From an uncultured bacterium (lineage in GTDB: Bacteria > Patescibacteriota > Patescibacteriia > Patescibacteriales > UBA12465), in NCBI GenBank assembly GCA_903904095.1, contig CAIVBF010000017.1, positions 1 to 24,983 on the forward strand: a DNA stretch of 24,983 nucleotides. The letters are read 5' to 3'. The position numbers and the translations under genes were made by a program. Under the pieces are notes generated by a model. That model was given only the letters and a program-made list of their open reading frames with translations, made no database searches and was not told the DNA's origin. Every line of letters begins with the position of its first letter. Within the stretch, counting starts at the first letter, position 1. Positions 5,979 to 14,875 of the stretch are shown here, one piece after another.

Positions 5979-8900
5979 ATGTCTAAACGCAAATCACTTT
6001 CTGAGTTAAGCGAGGTCATGCCAATGCCGGACTTAATAGAAATTCAGAAAGATTCTTATAGTTGGTTTCTGAAGGAAGGATTAGAAGAATTATTTGATGA
6101 AATTAATCCAGTGACGGATTTTATCGGTCGTGATTTAGAATTATATTTTGAAGATTATTATCTTGATGAACCGAAATTCTCGGAAATTGAGAGCCGTGAA
6201 AAAAATATTACTTACGAGGCCCCACTTCGGGTTAAAACTCGTCTTTTAAATAAAAAAAATAACCATGCTTTAAACCAGGAAATCTTCCTTGGTGATTTTC
6301 CTGTGATGACTGAAAAGGGAACATTTATTATTAATGGTATTGAAAGAGTTGTTGTTTCTCAGTTAATCCGTTCGGCCGGAGTTATGTTTACGGCTGAGTT
6401 TGTCAAAGGGAAAAAATGCTACGGCGCTAAAATTATTCCAAACCGCGGTGCCTGGTTAGAGATTGAAACTGATTCAAACAAAGTTATTTGGATTAGAATA
6501 GATAGAAAACGTAAAGTGGCGGCTACTTCGCTTTTACGGGCTTTTGGTTATGAAACCGATGAAGAACTAAAAAAATTATTTGCTGATGTTGATCTAGTAA
6601 AGAGCAAGGATGAAAAAACTTTCTTAGAGGCGACGATTGAAAAAGATGCGGCTAAGAATGAGGCCGAAGGTTTACAAGAAGTTTATCGCCGTATTCGTCC
6701 CGGTGATTTAGCGTCCGTTGATAACGCTCGCCAATTAATTCATTCAATGTTCTTCCGTTTTGATCGTTATGACTTTGGACGCGTTGGCCGATATAAATTA
6801 AATCGTCGTTTCAGTTTAGATTTATCAGCCACTAAAAAAGAGAATAGAATTTTACGCCGTGAGGACTTAGTTTTAATTATTAAAGAAGTTATCCGTTTAA
6901 ATATTACTAAGGAACCGGAAGACGATATTGATCATCTTGGTAATCGTCGTATTAGAGCGATTGGCGGTTTAATTCAAAATCGTTTCCGTGTCGGTTTGGC
7001 TCGTATGGAAAGAATTATCAAGGATAGAATGTCTACTTCTGAGCTTACTTCTATTACTCCTTCTAAATTAGTTAACGCTCGTCCGGTTATTGGTGTTATT
7101 AGGGAATTCTTCATGTCTTCTCAGTTATCACAGTTTATGGATCAGACAAATCCTTTAGCCGAACTTGAACACAAACGTCGTTTATCGGCGATGGGTCCGG
7201 GCGGTTTAACTCGTGAAAGAGCAGGCTTTGATGTTCGTGACGTACATACTACTCACTACGGCCGTATTTGTCCTATCGCTACTCCGGAAGGTCCGAATAT
7301 TGGTTTAGTCGGGCACTTAGCTAGTTATGCTCGTTTAAATAGTTACGGCTTTTTAGAAACTCCTTATAGAAAAGTGGCTCATGAGAAAAAAGGCAGCCGT
7401 GTTACCGATGAGATTGTTTATTTAGATGCTTTTGAAGAAGAAAAATTTATTACCGTTGATGCAACTATCCCGATGGATAAGGATGGTTACTTTTTAGTAA
7501 CTAAATATCAGGGTAGAAAATATGGTCAGCCGGGCTTAGAAGATATTACTAAGGTTGATTTTGTCGGTGTCGCCGCTAACCAGATTATTTCTGTCGCCAC
7601 TTCACTTATTCCTTTCATGGAACACAATGATGGACAGAGATCTTTAATGGGAACAAACATGCAACGTCAGGCTATTCCTTTAATTAAGAGCGAATCGCCT
7701 ATTGTCGGAACCGGTGTTGAAGAAAGAGCGGCTCGTGATAGTGGACATGTTGTTATTGCCAATGAAGATGGCATTATTACTAAAGTTGATGCGGGCATGA
7801 TTGAACTTACGACTAAGAAAGGTGAAATCATTACTTATAATTTAAATAAATTTTTACGTTCTAATTCTTCAACTTGTATTAATCAACACCCAGTAGTTGA
7901 TCTTGATCAGAAAGTTAAGAAAGGCGATATTTTATCCGATGGTCCGGCGATTGATAACGGGGAATTATCTTTAGGCCGAAATGTTTTAGTCGCTTTCATG
8001 ACTTGGGAAGGATTTAATTATGAAGATGCGGTTATTATTTCCGAACGTTTAGTTAAGGAAGATGTTTATTCCTCTATTCATATTGAAAACTATACGATTG
8101 ATGTTCGCGATACTAAATTAGGTCCAGAGCTTATTACTAATGATATTCCAAACATCAGTGAAGAGAAATTAAAGAATCTTGATGAGGAAGGTATTATCAG
8201 AATTGGCGCTGAGGTTTCAAGCGGCGATATTTTAGTTGGTAAAATTACCCCGAAGGGAGAAACTACTCTATCAGCTGAAGAAAAATTATTAAGAGCAATC
8301 TTTGGTGAAAAGGCCAAAGATGTTCGTGATTCTTCTTTGTATTTAGAGCACGGTGAACACGGAAAAGTAGTAGACATAAAAATATTTTCTCGTGAAGACG
8401 GTGATAAATTATCCGCTGGTGTTTTGAAATCAATTCAGATTGCGGTTGCTAACTTAAGAAAGATTCAGGTCGGTGATAAGGTTTCCGGTCGTCATGGAAA
8501 TAAGGGGGTTATTTCTCGCGTTGTGCCGATTGAGGATATGCCTTATATGGCTGATGGTACACCGATTGATGTTATTTTATCTCCGTTAGGTATTATTTCT
8601 CGTATGAACCTCGGGCAATTACTTGAAACTCATCTTGGCTTTGCGGCTCATAAATTAGGTTATAAAGTTATGAGTCCGGCTTTAAACGGAATCAGCGAAA
8701 ATCAGATTAAGGAAGAATTAGTAAAGGCGGGTTTACCGGAAGACGGGAAAGTTTCTTTATATGATGGTAAAACCGGTAATACTTATGATCATAAGATTAC
8801 GGTTGGTTATAAATATGTTCTGAAGTTAAACCACATGGTTGAAGATAAGATTCACCAACGTTCAATCGGTCCATACTCTTTAATTACGCAGCAGCCTTTG

Positions 8901-9275
8901 GGCGGTAAAGCGCAATTCGGTGGACAGCGTTTCGGAGAAATGGAAGTTTGGGCTTTAGAGGGTTATGGTGCTTCGCACACATTACAAGAAATGTTAACTA
9001 TTAAATCGGATGATGTTCCAGGACGATCTAAGGCATATGAAGCAATTATTAAGGGTGAAGAAATTGAAAAATTAAATGTACCAGAATCTTTTAACGTTTT
9101 GATTCGTGAGCTTAAAGGATTAGGTTTAAATGTTGAATTATTAGGGACAGAGGACGGTAAGCCGGCTTCGGAAGTTGAAACAATGATTGACGAGGAATTA
9201 AAAAATGACGATAAGTACGCCATTGAAAAACCGGAAATTATTGTTGATTTAAATGAAGTTGAAAATAAAGAATAA
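5979..9275 (+). CDS. rpoB: DNA-directed RNA polymerase subunit beta
   Basis: GTFIINGIERVVVSQL, SQLSQFMDQTNPL, HYGRICP, LMGTNMQRQA, GFNYEDA, GRHGNKG, SRMNLGQ, GGQRFGEMEVWALE. Compact 1098-aa form. Confidence 0.99.
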   Translation: MSKRKSLSELSEVMPMPDLIEIQKDSYSWFLKEGLEELFDEINPVTDFIGRDLELYFEDYYLDEPKFSEIESREKNITYEAPLRVKTRLLNKKNNHALNQEIFLGDFPVMTEKGTFIINGIERVVVSQLIRSAGVMFTAEFVKGKKCYGAKIIPNRGAWLEIETDSNKVIWIRIDRKRKVAATSLLRAFGYETDEELKKLFADVDLVKSKDEKTFLEATIEKDAAKNEAEGLQEVYRRIRPGDLASVDNARQLIHSMFFRFDRYDFGRVGRYKLNRRFSLDLSATKKENRILRREDLVLIIKEVIRLNITKEPEDDIDHLGNRRIRAIGGLIQNRFRVGLARMERIIKDRMSTSELTSITPSKLVNARPVIGVIREFFMSSQLSQFMDQTNPLAELEHKRRLSAMGPGGLTRERAGFDVRDVHTTHYGRICPIATPEGPNIGLVGHLASYARLNSYGFLETPYRKVAHEKKGSRVTDEIVYLDAFEEEKFITVDATIPMDKDGYFLVTKYQGRKYGQPGLEDITKVDFVGVAANQIISVATSLIPFMEHNDGQRSLMGTNMQRQAIPLIKSESPIVGTGVEERAARDSGHVVIANEDGIITKVDAGMIELTTKKGEIITYNLNKFLRSNSSTCINQHPVVDLDQKVKKGDILSDGPAIDNGELSLGRNVLVAFMTWEGFNYEDAVIISERLVKEDVYSSIHIENYTIDVRDTKLGPELITNDIPNISEEKLKNLDEEGIIRIGAEVSSGDILVGKITPKGETTLSAEEKLLRAIFGEKAKDVRDSSLYLEHGEHGKVVDIKIFSREDGDKLSAGVLKSIQIAVANLRKIQVGDKVSGRHGNKGVISRVVPIEDMPYMADGTPIDVILSPLGIISRMNLGQLLETHLGFAAHKLGYKVMSPALNGISENQIKEELVKAGLPEDGKVSLYDGKTGNTYDHKITVGYKYVLKLNHMVEDKIHQRSIGPYSLITQQPLGGKAQFGGQRFGEMEVWALEGYGASHTLQEMLTIKSDDVPGRSKAYEAIIKGEEIEKLNVPESFNVLIRELKGLGLNVELLGTEDGKPASEVETMIDEELKNDDKYAIEKPEIIVDLNEVENKE

Positions 9276-9330: not shown

Positions 9331-12300
9331 ATGTTAAACCCTATAAAAACTAGTGATTTCAGTGCGATCCGTTTAAAGCTTGCCTCGCCTGAAGAAATAA
9401 CTAATTGGTCGCACGGCGAAGTGACTCGTCCGGAAACAATTAATTACAGAACTCAGAAACCGGAAAAGGACGGTCTATTCTGTGAAAAGATTTTTGGTCC
9501 GACTAAAGACTGGGAATGTGCTTGCGGCAAATATAAAAAAATTCGCTACAAGGGAATTGTTTGTGACAAATGCGGCGTTGAAGTAACCCGCAGTGTTGTT
9601 CGCCGCGAAAGACTGGGTCATATTACCATGCAAGTTCCTTGTACTCATATCTGGTTTTTAAGAGGTTTATCATCTAAGATCGGCTTACTTTTAAATTTAG
9701 GAATCCAGTCTTTAGAAAAAGTTATTTATTACGCTAGTTTTATTGTTATTGATGTTGATGAGTCTTTGAAGGAAGCAACTATTGAACAAATCAAGCAGGA
9801 ATATAAAGGAAAAGTTAAAAGTATTGAGAATGATTTTAATAATCAGATTAAAAAGATAAAAGAAGTCGGTGGCAAAGAAGAAGAGAGTGCTATTAAAGAA
9901 GAAATGAAGGCCAAGGCTGTCCGCACTGAACGTCTTGAAGAAGATTTTGCGACTGCCCAGAAAGAATTAAAAGATTTAAAACCGCTTTTAATTTTATCCG
10001 AACAACAATATCAGAATTTAAGTTTAAAGTTCGGCCATATTTTTGAAGCTTCTATTGGTGCCGAGGCAATTCGCAAACTTCTTTCTAAAATTAATTTAGA
10101 AAAGAGTATTAAAAATTTAGAAGAAAAATTAGAAGGAGCGATTGATTCTAAAAAAGAAAAATTAATTAAGCGTTTAAAATTATTAAAGAGTTTTCGTAAT
10201 AACGATTTACGTCCGGAATGGATGATTATGACTGTTTTACCAGTTGTTCCACCGGATTTAAGACCGATGGTTGCTCTTGATGGCGGTCGCTTTGCTGCCT
10301 CCGATTTAAATGATTTATATCGTCGGGTTATCAACCGTAATAATCGCTTAAAGCAATTAGTTGATTTAAATGCACCGGAAGTTATCTGCCGTAACGAGAA
10401 AAGAATGTTGCAGGAAGCAGTTGATGCTTTAATTGATAACTCCGCTCGCCACACAAAAACGGTTACCGCTTCAACTGGTCAGAAGAGACAATTAAAATCA
10501 TTAGCGGATACTTTAAAGGGTAAACAGGGCCGTTTCCGTCAGAACTTATTAGGTAAGCGTGTTGATTATTCTGGTCGTTCGGTTATCGTTGTTAATCCAA
10601 CTCTAAATCTAGACCAATGTGGTTTGCCTAAAATCATGGCGATTGAATTATTTAAACCATTTATTATTTCGCAATTAATCAAGAGAGAAATTGTTCATAA
10701 TGTTAGAAGTGCTTCTCGTTATATTGAAGCTGGGCATGATGAGGTCTTTGATATTTTAGAAGAGATTGTCCGTGAAGCTTATGTTTTATTAAATCGTGCT
10801 CCTACCTTGCATCGTTTAGGTATTCAAGCTTTTAGACCGATCTTAATTGAAGGTAAGGCTATCCAGATCCATCCTTTAGTCTGTACCGCTTTTAACGCCG
10901 ACTTTGATGGTGACCAAATGGCCGTTCATGTTCCTTTAACTAGAGAAGCTCGCAAAGAAGCGGAAGAGTTAATGCTTTCAACTCATAACTTGCTTAAACC
11001 GGCCACTGGCGAACCGATTGTTGTTCCGACTCAGGATATTGTCTGGGGTACATATTATATGACTTTAACCAGTAAAGAATATAATGATCAGACAAAAGAA
11101 AAAATGCATTATTTTTATAATGAAGATGAGGCTCGTTTAGCTTACGAAAGTAATTTTATTGATTTACATGAAGCGATTAATGTTAGATACGAAGGAGAGA
11201 TGATGAAGACAACCGTTGGCCGCTTAATTTTTAATTCACTGCTTCCGGAAAAATTACGTTTCTTTAATGATGTTGTCGGTAAGGGTAAATTAAAAGATTT
11301 AATTAGAGATTGTTTACGTATTTACGGCGAAGAAGAAACGGTTAAATTTATTGATAGTTTAAAAAATAAGAGTTTTGCTTTTATTACTAAATCCGGTCTA
11401 TCTTGGGGTTTCGGCGATTTACCGAGCCTGCCAGAAAAAGATCGTTTAATTGATGAAGCTAATGTTCGGGTTGATTTAATCCAAGAACAATACGAAGAAG
11501 GTCTTTTAACCGAAAGTGAACGTTACGCTAAAGTTATTGAAGAATGGACTAATACTAAAGATAAGATTGCTGACATTTGCCGAAAAGGTTTAACGGATAT
11601 TTTACCGGTTTATTCTATGATTGAGTCCGGTGCCCGTGGTTCATGGGCTCAGCCGGTTCAGATTTTAGGTATGAAAGGTTTAGTAGTTTCTCCGTCTGGG
11701 GCGATTATTGAATTACCGGTTAAAGGTAACTTCAAAGAAGGATTCAGTGTTCTTGAATATTTTATTTCTACTCATGGTGTACGTAAAGGTTTATCGGATA
11801 CGGCTTTAAGAACAGCTAACGCCGGTTACTTAACTCGTCGTCTAGTTGATGTATCGCAAGATATTATTGTTGCTGACGATGATTGCGGCGACACTGAAGG
11901 AGCGATTTTCTCAGTGGCGGAGGCGGCTAAAACCGGCGATGATTTCTTTAAGAAAATTATCGGTCGTTATTTAGCGAAAGATGTTAAAGATAAAAAAGAT
12001 AAACTTATTCTAGCGGCTGGTGAGATTTTAAATGAAGAAAACATTAAATTATTAAAAGCTAAAGAAGTGACTGAGGCCTGTGTTCGCTCTGTTCTAAGCT
12101 GTAAAATGCATAAAGGAATTTGTGCAAAATGTTATGGTTGGGATTTGGCTTACAACAAGGCGGTTAAGATCGGTTCAACGGTCGGGGTTATTGCTGCTCA
12201 GTCAATCGGTGAACCGGGAACACAGTTAACTATGAGAACCTTTAGAACGGGTGGTGTTGCCGGAGCTGATGATATTACTCAGGGTCTACCTCGTGTTGAA

Positions 12301-13257
12301 GAAATTTTTGAAGCTCGTTCGCCTAAGAAAAAAGCTTTGATTTCCGATGTTAATGGTCGGGTTAAAATTGAGTTTGCTCAGAAAACTATTAAAGATCAGG
12401 ACGGTAAAGATATCTTAGTTAACAATCCGCAAGCTAAAGTTTTAAGTGTTTATTATAAAGGCAAAGATGCTGATAAATATTATTTCTCAGAAAAGATTAA
12501 CGAGATTAAATTAAGCCAGGGAATAACGGCTAAGGATAAAAAGAAATTAGAAGTTAAAGTTCTTGTTAAAGAAGGCCAAGAAGTTCATAAGAATACTGAT
12601 TTATTTAGTGTTGGCGGCGAAACTGTTCAGGCCAAAACAGCCGGGACTGTTGCTCTAGCCGATAAATACATTAGTATTACTAAAGATGTTGAGAAAGTTA
12701 AAGAATTTGTTATTCTTCGCGGTACGATGATGCTTGTTAAAGATGGCGATATTGTTGAAAGAGGAACCCAATTAACCGAAGGAAGCCTTGATTTAAGAGA
12801 ATTATATAAGTTAAAGGGAAGATTAGAAACGCAAAAATATATTATTCGCGAAATTCAGTATGTTTATTCTTCTCAGGGGCAACCTTTAAATGATAAACAC
12901 GTTGAAATTATTGCTCGTCAGATGTTCTCTCGTTATTTAATTAAAGAAGCCGGCGATACAATTTTATTGCCGGGCGAAATGGTTGAAGATGAGGTTCTAG
13001 ATCAAGCGAATAAGAATGTTAAAAAATTAGCTAAAGCTGATAGACTGCTACTTGGTATTACTAAGGCGTCCCTAACAACCGATAGTTTCTTGTCAGCTGC
13101 TTCATTTCAAGAAACTTCCCGCGTTTTAATTGATGCGGCTGTTAATGGAAAGATTGATTATCTTGAGGGATTAAAGGAAAATGTTATCATTGGTTGCTTA
13201 ATTCCGGCCGGTACTGGTTACAAAGGAAAGAAGAAAAGAATTGATTATGGCAAATAA
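9331..13257 (+). CDS. rpoC: DNA-directed RNA polymerase subunit beta'
   Basis: Zn finger CACGKY...CDKC, GKRVDYSGRSVIV, LLNRAPTLHR, catalytic NADFDGDQM, GYLTRRLVDV, second Zn site, SAASFQET, GLKENVIIG. Confidence 0.99.
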   Translation: MLNPIKTSDFSAIRLKLASPEEITNWSHGEVTRPETINYRTQKPEKDGLFCEKIFGPTKDWECACGKYKKIRYKGIVCDKCGVEVTRSVVRRERLGHITMQVPCTHIWFLRGLSSKIGLLLNLGIQSLEKVIYYASFIVIDVDESLKEATIEQIKQEYKGKVKSIENDFNNQIKKIKEVGGKEEESAIKEEMKAKAVRTERLEEDFATAQKELKDLKPLLILSEQQYQNLSLKFGHIFEASIGAEAIRKLLSKINLEKSIKNLEEKLEGAIDSKKEKLIKRLKLLKSFRNNDLRPEWMIMTVLPVVPPDLRPMVALDGGRFAASDLNDLYRRVINRNNRLKQLVDLNAPEVICRNEKRMLQEAVDALIDNSARHTKTVTASTGQKRQLKSLADTLKGKQGRFRQNLLGKRVDYSGRSVIVVNPTLNLDQCGLPKIMAIELFKPFIISQLIKREIVHNVRSASRYIEAGHDEVFDILEEIVREAYVLLNRAPTLHRLGIQAFRPILIEGKAIQIHPLVCTAFNADFDGDQMAVHVPLTREARKEAEELMLSTHNLLKPATGEPIVVPTQDIVWGTYYMTLTSKEYNDQTKEKMHYFYNEDEARLAYESNFIDLHEAINVRYEGEMMKTTVGRLIFNSLLPEKLRFFNDVVGKGKLKDLIRDCLRIYGEEETVKFIDSLKNKSFAFITKSGLSWGFGDLPSLPEKDRLIDEANVRVDLIQEQYEEGLLTESERYAKVIEEWTNTKDKIADICRKGLTDILPVYSMIESGARGSWAQPVQILGMKGLVVSPSGAIIELPVKGNFKEGFSVLEYFISTHGVRKGLSDTALRTANAGYLTRRLVDVSQDIIVADDDCGDTEGAIFSVAEAAKTGDDFFKKIIGRYLAKDVKDKKDKLILAAGEILNEENIKLLKAKEVTEACVRSVLSCKMHKGICAKCYGWDLAYNKAVKIGSTVGVIAAQSIGEPGTQLTMRTFRTGGVAGADDITQGLPRVEEIFEARSPKKKALISDVNGRVKIEFAQKTIKDQDGKDILVNNPQAKVLSVYYKGKDADKYYFSEKINEIKLSQGITAKDKKKLEVKVLVKEGQEVHKNTDLFSVGGETVQAKTAGTVALADKYISITKDVEKVKEFVILRGTMMLVKDGDIVERGTQLTEGSLDLRELYKLKGRLETQKYIIREIQYVYSSQGQPLNDKHVEIIARQMFSRYLIKEAGDTILLPGEMVEDEVLDQANKNVKKLAKADRLLLGITKASLTTDSFLSAASFQETSRVLIDAAVNGKIDYLEGLKENVIIGCLIPAGTGYKGKKKRIDYGK

Positions 13258-13363: not shown

Positions 13364-14875
13364 ATGTTTAAATCATTTTATCAGAAATGGTCATTTTTAT
13401 TTAAGCTCCGTTTATTTTTCGGAGTGCTTTTGTTAATTTTGATTTTAATATTTCTTTATTTAAAAATTGTTCCATTCGGCCATATTAGTTATGTCCGTTC
13501 TTACCCGGAATTTATCAAATCCGGTAAGGGATTTATTTATGGCTTTAGTCCGGCTGAGCGGATTGATTTAAAAAGCGGCGATTATCCGAAACTAATCGGC
13601 GACCCTGTTTATTTCTCTGTTTTTACACCGCGAACATTTGATACCGCTAAACTGACTATTAAATATAGAAGCCATTTAAGCTCACATGAGCCGATTATTG
13701 AAGCCGGTGTTTTGGCGGATAATATTGTTTGGAGTTACGATTTAAAGCCGCTACAGAATAAAATAATTGATTCTTTAAAAACGAATTGGTCGCGACTAGA
13801 AAATGGATCAAAAGTATTTTTGCAGAGGGACGGAAAATATAGTTCTTGGGCCGAGCTAGAAGGGGATTTGAATAAAGGGAGATTACAAAATTGTCCGGAA
13901 GGGATAAATTCATGCTTAGCAACCTATAATTATAAGGTTCCGTCGCATTATCAGCAGCCTAATTTAAACAATTCAATGCCTTTAGTTATTGAAACGCCGC
14001 TTCGCGGCGCCCATCAGCTTTATATTTATCTGAATAACCAGCCCTTTCATCTTGAGTTTAACTTTATTAATCTTCGCCAGGATAAAGCTGACGATCCTAT
14101 ATTAATTAATGTCTATGCGGTAAATGAAAATAATAAATTAATCAGTTCTAAGTATTTAGCCGATGATCAGAAAAAAACAGCTAGTTTAAATTCTGATTCG
14201 GAAATCAAAAAAATAATTATTGATGAGAAAAATTTAAGCAACGGCTTATATAAAGTTGAAATAAAAGTTAGGGACGATACGGTTATAAAAAAAATAAGCA
14301 GTTCAGTTGATAAGCTAGTCTTTATTAATAAGATTTGGCCTGTTTCAGCCGATATGCCCCTGAGTTTATGGACGGACTCTGATTATTTGCAGGCCAAGGT
14401 CTATAGTCCGGCTAGCCGCCAAACGATCAATTTTGCCGGCAAAGATTTTATTCTTGATGAGCCATATAAGCAATTTGATTTAATAGTTGATAATCCGCAA
14501 AGCGCTAAAGAGATAAAATTAAATAAAGATGATGTTATTTTAGAAAATAATGGTGTTTTTTCTTTCAGCAAGAGCAGTTTATTTAATCCGGATCCACATA
14601 AAATAGATCGTTTTTTCAAGATTGATGATAATATAAAATATATTATAGCCGATTATGAGGCGCCCCTGGATTACGTTGAAAATGGCTTTAAAACCAAGAC
14701 AATTTCTTTTAATACCAAGACGGCCTATCGTGAAAATAGTAAGTATAATTTCATGATTTCTATTCCCGGTCTTAATTCAAGCGCTTCCTCCTCCGATTAT
14801 TTAGAAATAAAAGAAATCCGTTTAGACTTTTCCGGCCGAACCTTGTGGCAGAAATTATTTAAGAAGAATATTTAA
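13364..14875 (+). CDS. Hypothetical membrane-anchored protein with large extracytoplasmic, probably beta-rich region
   Basis: 503-aa ORF; one hydrophobic segment (LFFGVLLLILILIFLYL) after a basic N-terminus; rest hydrophilic. No family recognised. Confidence 0.8.
   Translation: MFKSFYQKWSFLFKLRLFFGVLLLILILIFLYLKIVPFGHISYVRSYPEFIKSGKGFIYGFSPAERIDLKSGDYPKLIGDPVYFSVFTPRTFDTAKLTIKYRSHLSSHEPIIEAGVLADNIVWSYDLKPLQNKIIDSLKTNWSRLENGSKVFLQRDGKYSSWAELEGDLNKGRLQNCPEGINSCLATYNYKVPSHYQQPNLNNSMPLVIETPLRGAHQLYIYLNNQPFHLEFNFINLRQDKADDPILINVYAVNENNKLISSKYLADDQKKTASLNSDSEIKKIIIDEKNLSNGLYKVEIKVRDDTVIKKISSSVDKLVFINKIWPVSADMPLSLWTDSDYLQAKVYSPASRQTINFAGKDFILDEPYKQFDLIVDNPQSAKEIKLNKDDVILENNGVFSFSKSSLFNPDPHKIDRFFKIDDNIKYIIADYEAPLDYVENGFKTKTISFNTKTAYRENSKYNFMISIPGLNSSASSSDYLEIKEIRLDFSGRTLWQKLFKKNI

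Follow-up and report, generated by a model that had tools for sequence, protein, structure and literature searches.

The RNA polymerase β′ subunit (RpoC) encoded in the window (the whole 24,983-nucleotide stretch of DNA analysed) carries arginine at the position of the trigger-loop histidine. From sequence comparisons we consider it probable that this arginine, or lysine in a sister lineage, serves as a compensated positional catalyst in the sole housekeeping polymerase of a lineage of Candidatus Falkowbacteria (Patescibacteria; assigned from named homologues). The rpoC gene (positions 9331–13257, + strand, 1308 aa, from the open reading frame and its translation) lies directly downstream of rpoB (5979–9275, + strand, β subunit, 1098 aa). 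Between 12211 and 12258 the rpoC frame reads EPGTQLTMRTFRTGGV, with the translation E-P-G-T-Q-L-T-M-R-T-F-R-T-G-G-V. The original prediction, that codon 12244–12246 (+ strand) is AGA and encodes residue 972 while the catalytic Mg-binding motif NADFDGD (residues 522–528, 10894–10914, + strand) is intact, held on both counts when the frame 9331–13257 was re-read. It had also equated residue 972 with E. coli β′ H936, and a MAFFT alignment with E. coli MG1655 β′ (locus L091) agreed, placing R972 on H936 unambiguously. In the same alignment the trigger loop spans residues 960–996 (12208–12318, + strand; 37 residues) and has no lineage-specific insertion; its first 19 residues (960–978) differ from E. 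coli at four positions, 972 aside. The whole 37-residue loop presumably differs from that of Thermus at very few positions.

Five Pfam families, PF04997, PF00623, PF04983, PF05000 and PF04998 (RNA_pol_Rpb1_1 to _5, in this order), were found on the 90% cluster of the window RpoC, and the same RNA_pol_Rpb1 set was called on sister contigs. The family features examined (Rpb1 domains, NADFDGD, rpoB directly upstream, single copy) are all present, apart from the trigger-loop histidine. Since that histidine is a statement about conservation and the other features are in place, the protein is RpoC with a variant residue. It has in common with canonical β′ (E. coli H936, T. thermophilus H1242) the subunit, its domains, NADFDGD, the rpoB-rpoC operon and the trigger-loop length, and differs from it by having Arg (Lys in the sister lineage) instead of the His that hydrogen-bonds the NTP β-phosphate, together with linked changes at the equivalents of A748 and N768 and seven residues past the Arg.

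The His to Arg substitution is genuine, as indicated by three indirect lines: independent assemblies, the 90% cluster and 31-mers. The 1308-aa protein recurs without a single difference on 24 contigs (NCBI, Logan, ENA; the longest 123 kb), no independent assembly had CAY at this codon, and Arg was found at residue 972 in 6/6 members of the window protein's 90% cluster. Two sampled 31-mers from the 63 bases spanning codon 972 were present in runs of four studies, the runs coming from lake water, groundwater and one unlabelled source. Logan contigs retrieved from four runs at 80% likeness were mostly rpoC of other organisms, with the organism's own contigs filtered out; the foreign contigs were clipped at 12242 because CAC or CAT follows there. 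In 29 relatives the His codon is CAT (23/29) or CAC (6/29), so that AGA differs from it at all three bases and a single-base error is ruled out, as the original prediction had argued. Recoding of AGA was also excluded. Arg969 (E. coli R933), which is retained, is encoded by a neighbouring AGA (12235–12237, + strand, by alignment), and because this residue is invariant AGA must be read as Arg in this organism; there are 35 AGA codons in rpoBC.

The source genome is a metagenome-assembled genome (MAG) of 877 kb in 170 contigs, 91% complete. The expectation that the gene belongs to a housekeeping polymerase was borne out by copy number: the window rpoC gave the only rpoC match in this genome, and no second rpoC was found either there or in five other Arg-bearing genomes searched (among the 28 described below), each of which had a single true rpoC. 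Neighbouring genes in the window are of housekeeping type (cation efflux, FtsK, Mur ligase, an ADP-forming acyl-CoA synthetase-like protein, MurJ, LepA, RecJ), and the order Mur ligase, rpoB, rpoC is conserved in sister contigs. A GreA homologue is encoded on a different contig of the genome. Directly 3′ of rpoC lies an open reading frame of 503 aa (13364–14875, + strand) to which no Pfam family matches; at this place sister contig L094 carries other genes that lack annotation.

Arg972 could in principle be an error of assembly or sequencing, or the gene could be a pseudogene or an extra copy kept beside a canonical rpoC. This reading finds some footing in the fragmented state of the genome and in the fact that the other 28 Arg genomes are MAGs too, but we regard it as extremely improbable, given the three base differences between AGA and CAY, the independence of the 24 contigs, the six sister clusters from other samples that have the same state, encoded by differing synonymous codons, a dN/dS of ~0.03, the single rpoC in each genome searched and the conserved synteny.

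The distribution of the variant among relatives was sharply bounded. His was present in 24/24 sampled congeneric species and in 5/5 species of the same order. When the best 150 representatives at 50% identity were examined with a strict trigger-loop pattern, 130/150 matched, all with His (130/130); additionally there was one Tyr, and there was no Arg among these best 150. The remaining 19 were fragments or His-bearing sequences with other variation in the motif, except for atypical loops in P0049 and P0076. The Tyr-bearing sequence, P0115 (1228 aa), is a β′ homologue whose trigger-loop tip, MRTFYSAGGAGGDIT, is unusual.

Among the 120 nearest 90% clusters, the seven closest carried Arg (six) or Lys (one) and the other 113 carried His. 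The seven are 91–100% identical over residues 880–1120 and all have Ala979, while most of the 113 have Gln at 979; the Lys sequence (P0160) was found on 11 contigs. In a maximum-likelihood tree the seven clusters were monophyletic (SH-aLRT 100), with Lys nested among Arg. Arg/Lys is a trait of a subclade, not of the genus, and arose once in this clade. The stem of the clade is long, 0.17 changes per site compared with 0.02–0.09 for neighbouring internal branches, which points either to rapid RpoC change around the time His was lost or to unsampled diversity.

Genes of the seven Arg/Lys members align without indels at 83–86% nucleotide identity (with the exception of P0158 and P0159, which are almost identical to each other), with pairwise dS of 0.9–1.5 and dN/dS of 0.02–0.04. 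Codon 972 is AGA in four, AGG in two and AAA in one. The residue has thus stayed basic while synonymous sites came near saturation, which implies long retention. We conclude that the basic residue at 972 is old and under strong purifying selection. Of the columns that do not vary among 31 relatives, the window RpoC departs uniquely at three (L100M, H972R, K1130R) and the window RpoB at two, both of its changes being conservative; these counts are comparable to those of congeners. A decaying gene or pseudogene was excluded by the congener-like counts, the low dN/dS and the intact frame.

Other residues changed along with position 972. At eight RpoC columns the Arg/Lys clade has residues never seen in 102 full-length His-type homologues, and at four of the eight the His group shows no variation (T786V, G806S, E866A, H972R/K). 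In a clean alignment, Val786 (GTT, 11686–11688, + strand) falls in the F-loop at the equivalent of E. coli A748, with Thr in 102/102 His-type homologues and Val in 7/7 proteins of the clade. Ser806 (AGT, 11746–11748, + strand; E. coli N768) replaces a Gly present in 102/102, at a position that we take to be in the conserved motif immediately before the bridge helix. The original prediction had allowed for accompanying F-loop and bridge-helix changes, and T786V and G806S are changes of this kind. Ala866 (GCT, 11926–11928, + strand) is diagnostic of the clade, with Glu in 102/102 His-type homologues. Ala979 (GCT, 12265–12267, + strand), within the trigger loop seven residues past Arg972, is linked to Arg/Lys; the His-type homologues have Gln (98/102) or Ser (4/102) there.

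One of these changes, T786V, can be read against the E. coli structure. A Michaelis-complex study reported a backbone hydrogen bond between A748 and G939 of E. coli, and a hydrophobic trigger-loop/F-loop interface of A748, L746, M747, A940 and A941 that stabilises the closed loop (2026; PMC13198411). Contacts of the β subunit with the NTP were excluded as compensators, since R678, K1073 and R1106 (E. coli numbering) are unaltered in the window RpoB; the other active-site residues are also unaltered in the alignment with E. coli. On a stem as long as 0.17 changes per site, chance alone should produce some co-substitutions close to residue 972.

In the mechanism we favour, the trigger-loop His, which touches the β-phosphate of the incoming NTP, has been replaced by a permanently charged Arg or Lys. 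On closure of the trigger loop, the guanidinium or ammonium group would take over the positioning job of the imidazole, through a hydrogen bond or salt bridge to the NTP phosphates. Q979A, T786V and G806S may offset the cost of the substitution by tightening or reshaping the packing of the closed trigger loop against the F-loop. Whether this histidine is a general acid or a positional catalyst has been disputed for a long time. E. coli H936Q had very minor effects, taken to refute the general-acid role and to favour a positional catalyst (Mishanina 2017, as cited in PMC13198411). In yeast Rpb1, H1085A, N, D and F are lethal, H1085K, R, W and Y are viable with severe growth defects, H1085Q has a slight defect and H1085L is healthy (PMC5127505), and gain-of-function alleles suppress the loss-of-function H1085Y (PMC5127505, PMC12391331). 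The viable but sick H1085K and H1085R show the type of defect that compensation could remove; by the same token, the severity of the Arg and Lys defects in Pol II means that equal function is not guaranteed.

It is also conceivable, though in our judgement unlikely, that residue 972 only fills space and so shapes the closed active site, its charge and any hydrogen bonds to the NTP being irrelevant and Arg being just one side chain that is tolerated there. The healthy yeast H1085L, for which the same proposal was made, fits such a steric role, as does follow-up work of the Landick laboratory, described in PMC5127505 and PMC12391331 as favouring effects that are mainly steric. Natural Gln is common as well (at least 120 metagenome contigs, see below), and one Tyr was seen in P0115. 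Against it stands the restriction of the clade to Arg and Lys over a dS of ~1, an argument that selection retains a positive charge or a hydrogen-bond donor.

Laboratory mutants (E. coli H936Q/A; yeast Rpb1 H1085K/R/Q/L/Y) affect the identical position. They are single changes in a His-adapted background, in which K and R grow poorly, whereas the Falkowbacteria enzyme is natural and the cell's sole polymerase, has kept its basic residue for long and has co-evolved neighbours. Plant RNA polymerase IV is a natural multisubunit polymerase without the trigger-loop His, with Ser898 in its place. In contrast to the Falkowbacteria enzyme, whose remaining trigger loop is canonical and which is the only polymerase of the cell, Pol IV works alongside Pol II as a specialised paralogue and is slow and error-prone, with a degenerate loop that makes no NTP contact (PMC11343019). 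Single-subunit polymerases, in which a Lys or Arg near the NTP phosphates was proposed to aid the leaving of pyrophosphate (Castro et al., as cited in PMC13198411), have an unrelated fold, and their likeness to Arg/Lys RpoC is a functional analogy only.

The trigger-loop His has been termed "universally conserved" (PMC13198411, 2026) and both "invariant" and "universally conserved", with plant Pol IV as the exception (PMC11343019, 2024). The literature searched, with Mishanina 2017 and Palo 2021 lying outside it, held no RNA polymerase record of natural Arg variants or of H936R, H1242R or H1085R. What we describe is a new natural variant of a well-known enzyme, rare but recurrent, with no published record found. 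The original prediction is supported in part, its alternative active-site chemistry standing as a hypothesis. That natural sole polymerases have long kept Arg or Lys shows that living cells can do without the imidazole. These enzymes point to a basic hydrogen-bond donor as the feature retained by selection and to the trigger-loop tip and F-loop contact as the neighbours that readjust. They also offer natural sequences and specific substitution pairs for experiments, beyond single mutants in a His-adapted enzyme.

Recurrence of the variant was examined with the pattern Q-L-T-M-R-T-F-(Arg/Ser codon)-x-G-G in 185,579 species genomes; together, the codon scans of genomes and metagenomes covered only Arg/Ser, Gln and Lys codons. 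A further 28 species of the 185,579 matched, with Arg in 28/28 and in at least eight lineages, a frequency of ~0.015% among species with the canonical flanking motif. The matches comprised 11 Oscillospiraceae (one Subdoligranulum included; many from termite guts), six Caulobacterales or Caulobacter, four Chlamydiota, three Nocardioidaceae/Propionibacteriales, two Saccharibacteria and one other member of Patescibacteria, one Mycobacterium and one Francisellaceae. The original prediction had left room for Arg at this position being already widespread and documented; it proved to be neither, and the Arg/Lys subclade and the independent recurrence in 28 species make the variant less singular. Arg codons differ inside lineages (CGT, CGC and CGG; AGA and CGT), and such variety again implies long retention. 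All 28 Arg genomes (loci L032–L059) are MAGs and none is a cultured isolate, even for Caulobacter and Mycobacterium; this pattern may be due to chance, as the hits fall into about nine lineages, or may hint at lineages that are hard to culture.

In 4/4 lineages compared with their His-type relatives, a second lineage-specific change was found four to seven residues past the Arg, mostly toward a bulkier hydrophobic residue: GGIAS became GGIVS in Oscillospiraceae, VAS became VAL in Nocardioidaceae, GG(T/A)A became GGIA in Caulobacterales and GGIASA became GGVASV in Chlamydiota (His-type and Arg lineage, respectively). The fourth and fifth residues past the Arg are the equivalents of E. coli A940 and A941, part of the F-loop interface. 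With Falkowbacteria included, this makes five independent events that involve a change in the tip of the trigger loop or at a place that packs against it, a suggestive but statistically not strong association. The F-loop was unaltered in the Arg lineages of Oscillospiraceae and Nocardioidaceae, and an F-loop compensator common to all Arg lineages was therefore rejected. We propose tentatively, at somewhat less than an even chance, that RNA polymerases with Arg/Lys at the trigger-loop His form a class scattered across bacteria, with at least eight origins, each accompanied by repacking of the tip or the F-loop. Their catalytic properties would differ measurably: the rate could be pH-independent, fidelity, backtracking or cleavage could be altered, or inhibitors directed at the trigger loop could be resisted. 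Such a class, if real, would let the positional-catalyst model be tested on enzymes that evolution has already supplied.

Gln was found at the His position in 2/28 sampled Oscillospiraceae relatives (L122, L126). The metagenome scan for Gln and Lys codons returned at least 120 contigs; of 80 that were readable, 79 had Gln and one had Lys. The Gln-bearing contigs, from JGI metagenomes (loci L160–L239), have many different trigger-loop sequences, with a large share from termite guts. Frequent natural Gln fits the near-neutral effect of H936Q in E. coli. The mutational route from CAY to AGA takes three steps, and can pass solely through natural or known-viable states: it can run from His through Gln and Lys to Arg, or from His directly to Arg (CGY), followed by synonymous changes.

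Loss of the His might instead be an adaptation to external pressure, for example resistance to a natural inhibitor of RNA polymerase whose action depends on the His, or a pH-independent rate, as Arg stays protonated. Tagetitoxin and streptolydigin act via the bacterial trigger loop. In Pol II the His is a direct target of α-amanitin (PMC12391331), and the independent recurrence in unrelated bacteria that share a habitat, for example several termite-gut lineages with Arg or Gln, would agree with a common pressure. Within the window, however, there is no inhibitor gene or resistance context, the neighbours being housekeeping, and the habitats of the lineages are very diverse (lake water, groundwater, insect gut, intracellular); we consider this explanation quite improbable, and retain compensated positional catalysis by Arg/Lys as the preferred reading.

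One of the Saccharibacteria MAGs with His-to-Arg rpoC also contained an open frame of 2862 aa (G045:C19:4351–5019) with 35% identity to RpoC residues 300–560, a second, very divergent RNA-polymerase-like gene, which possibly derives from a phage or encodes a fused polymerase.
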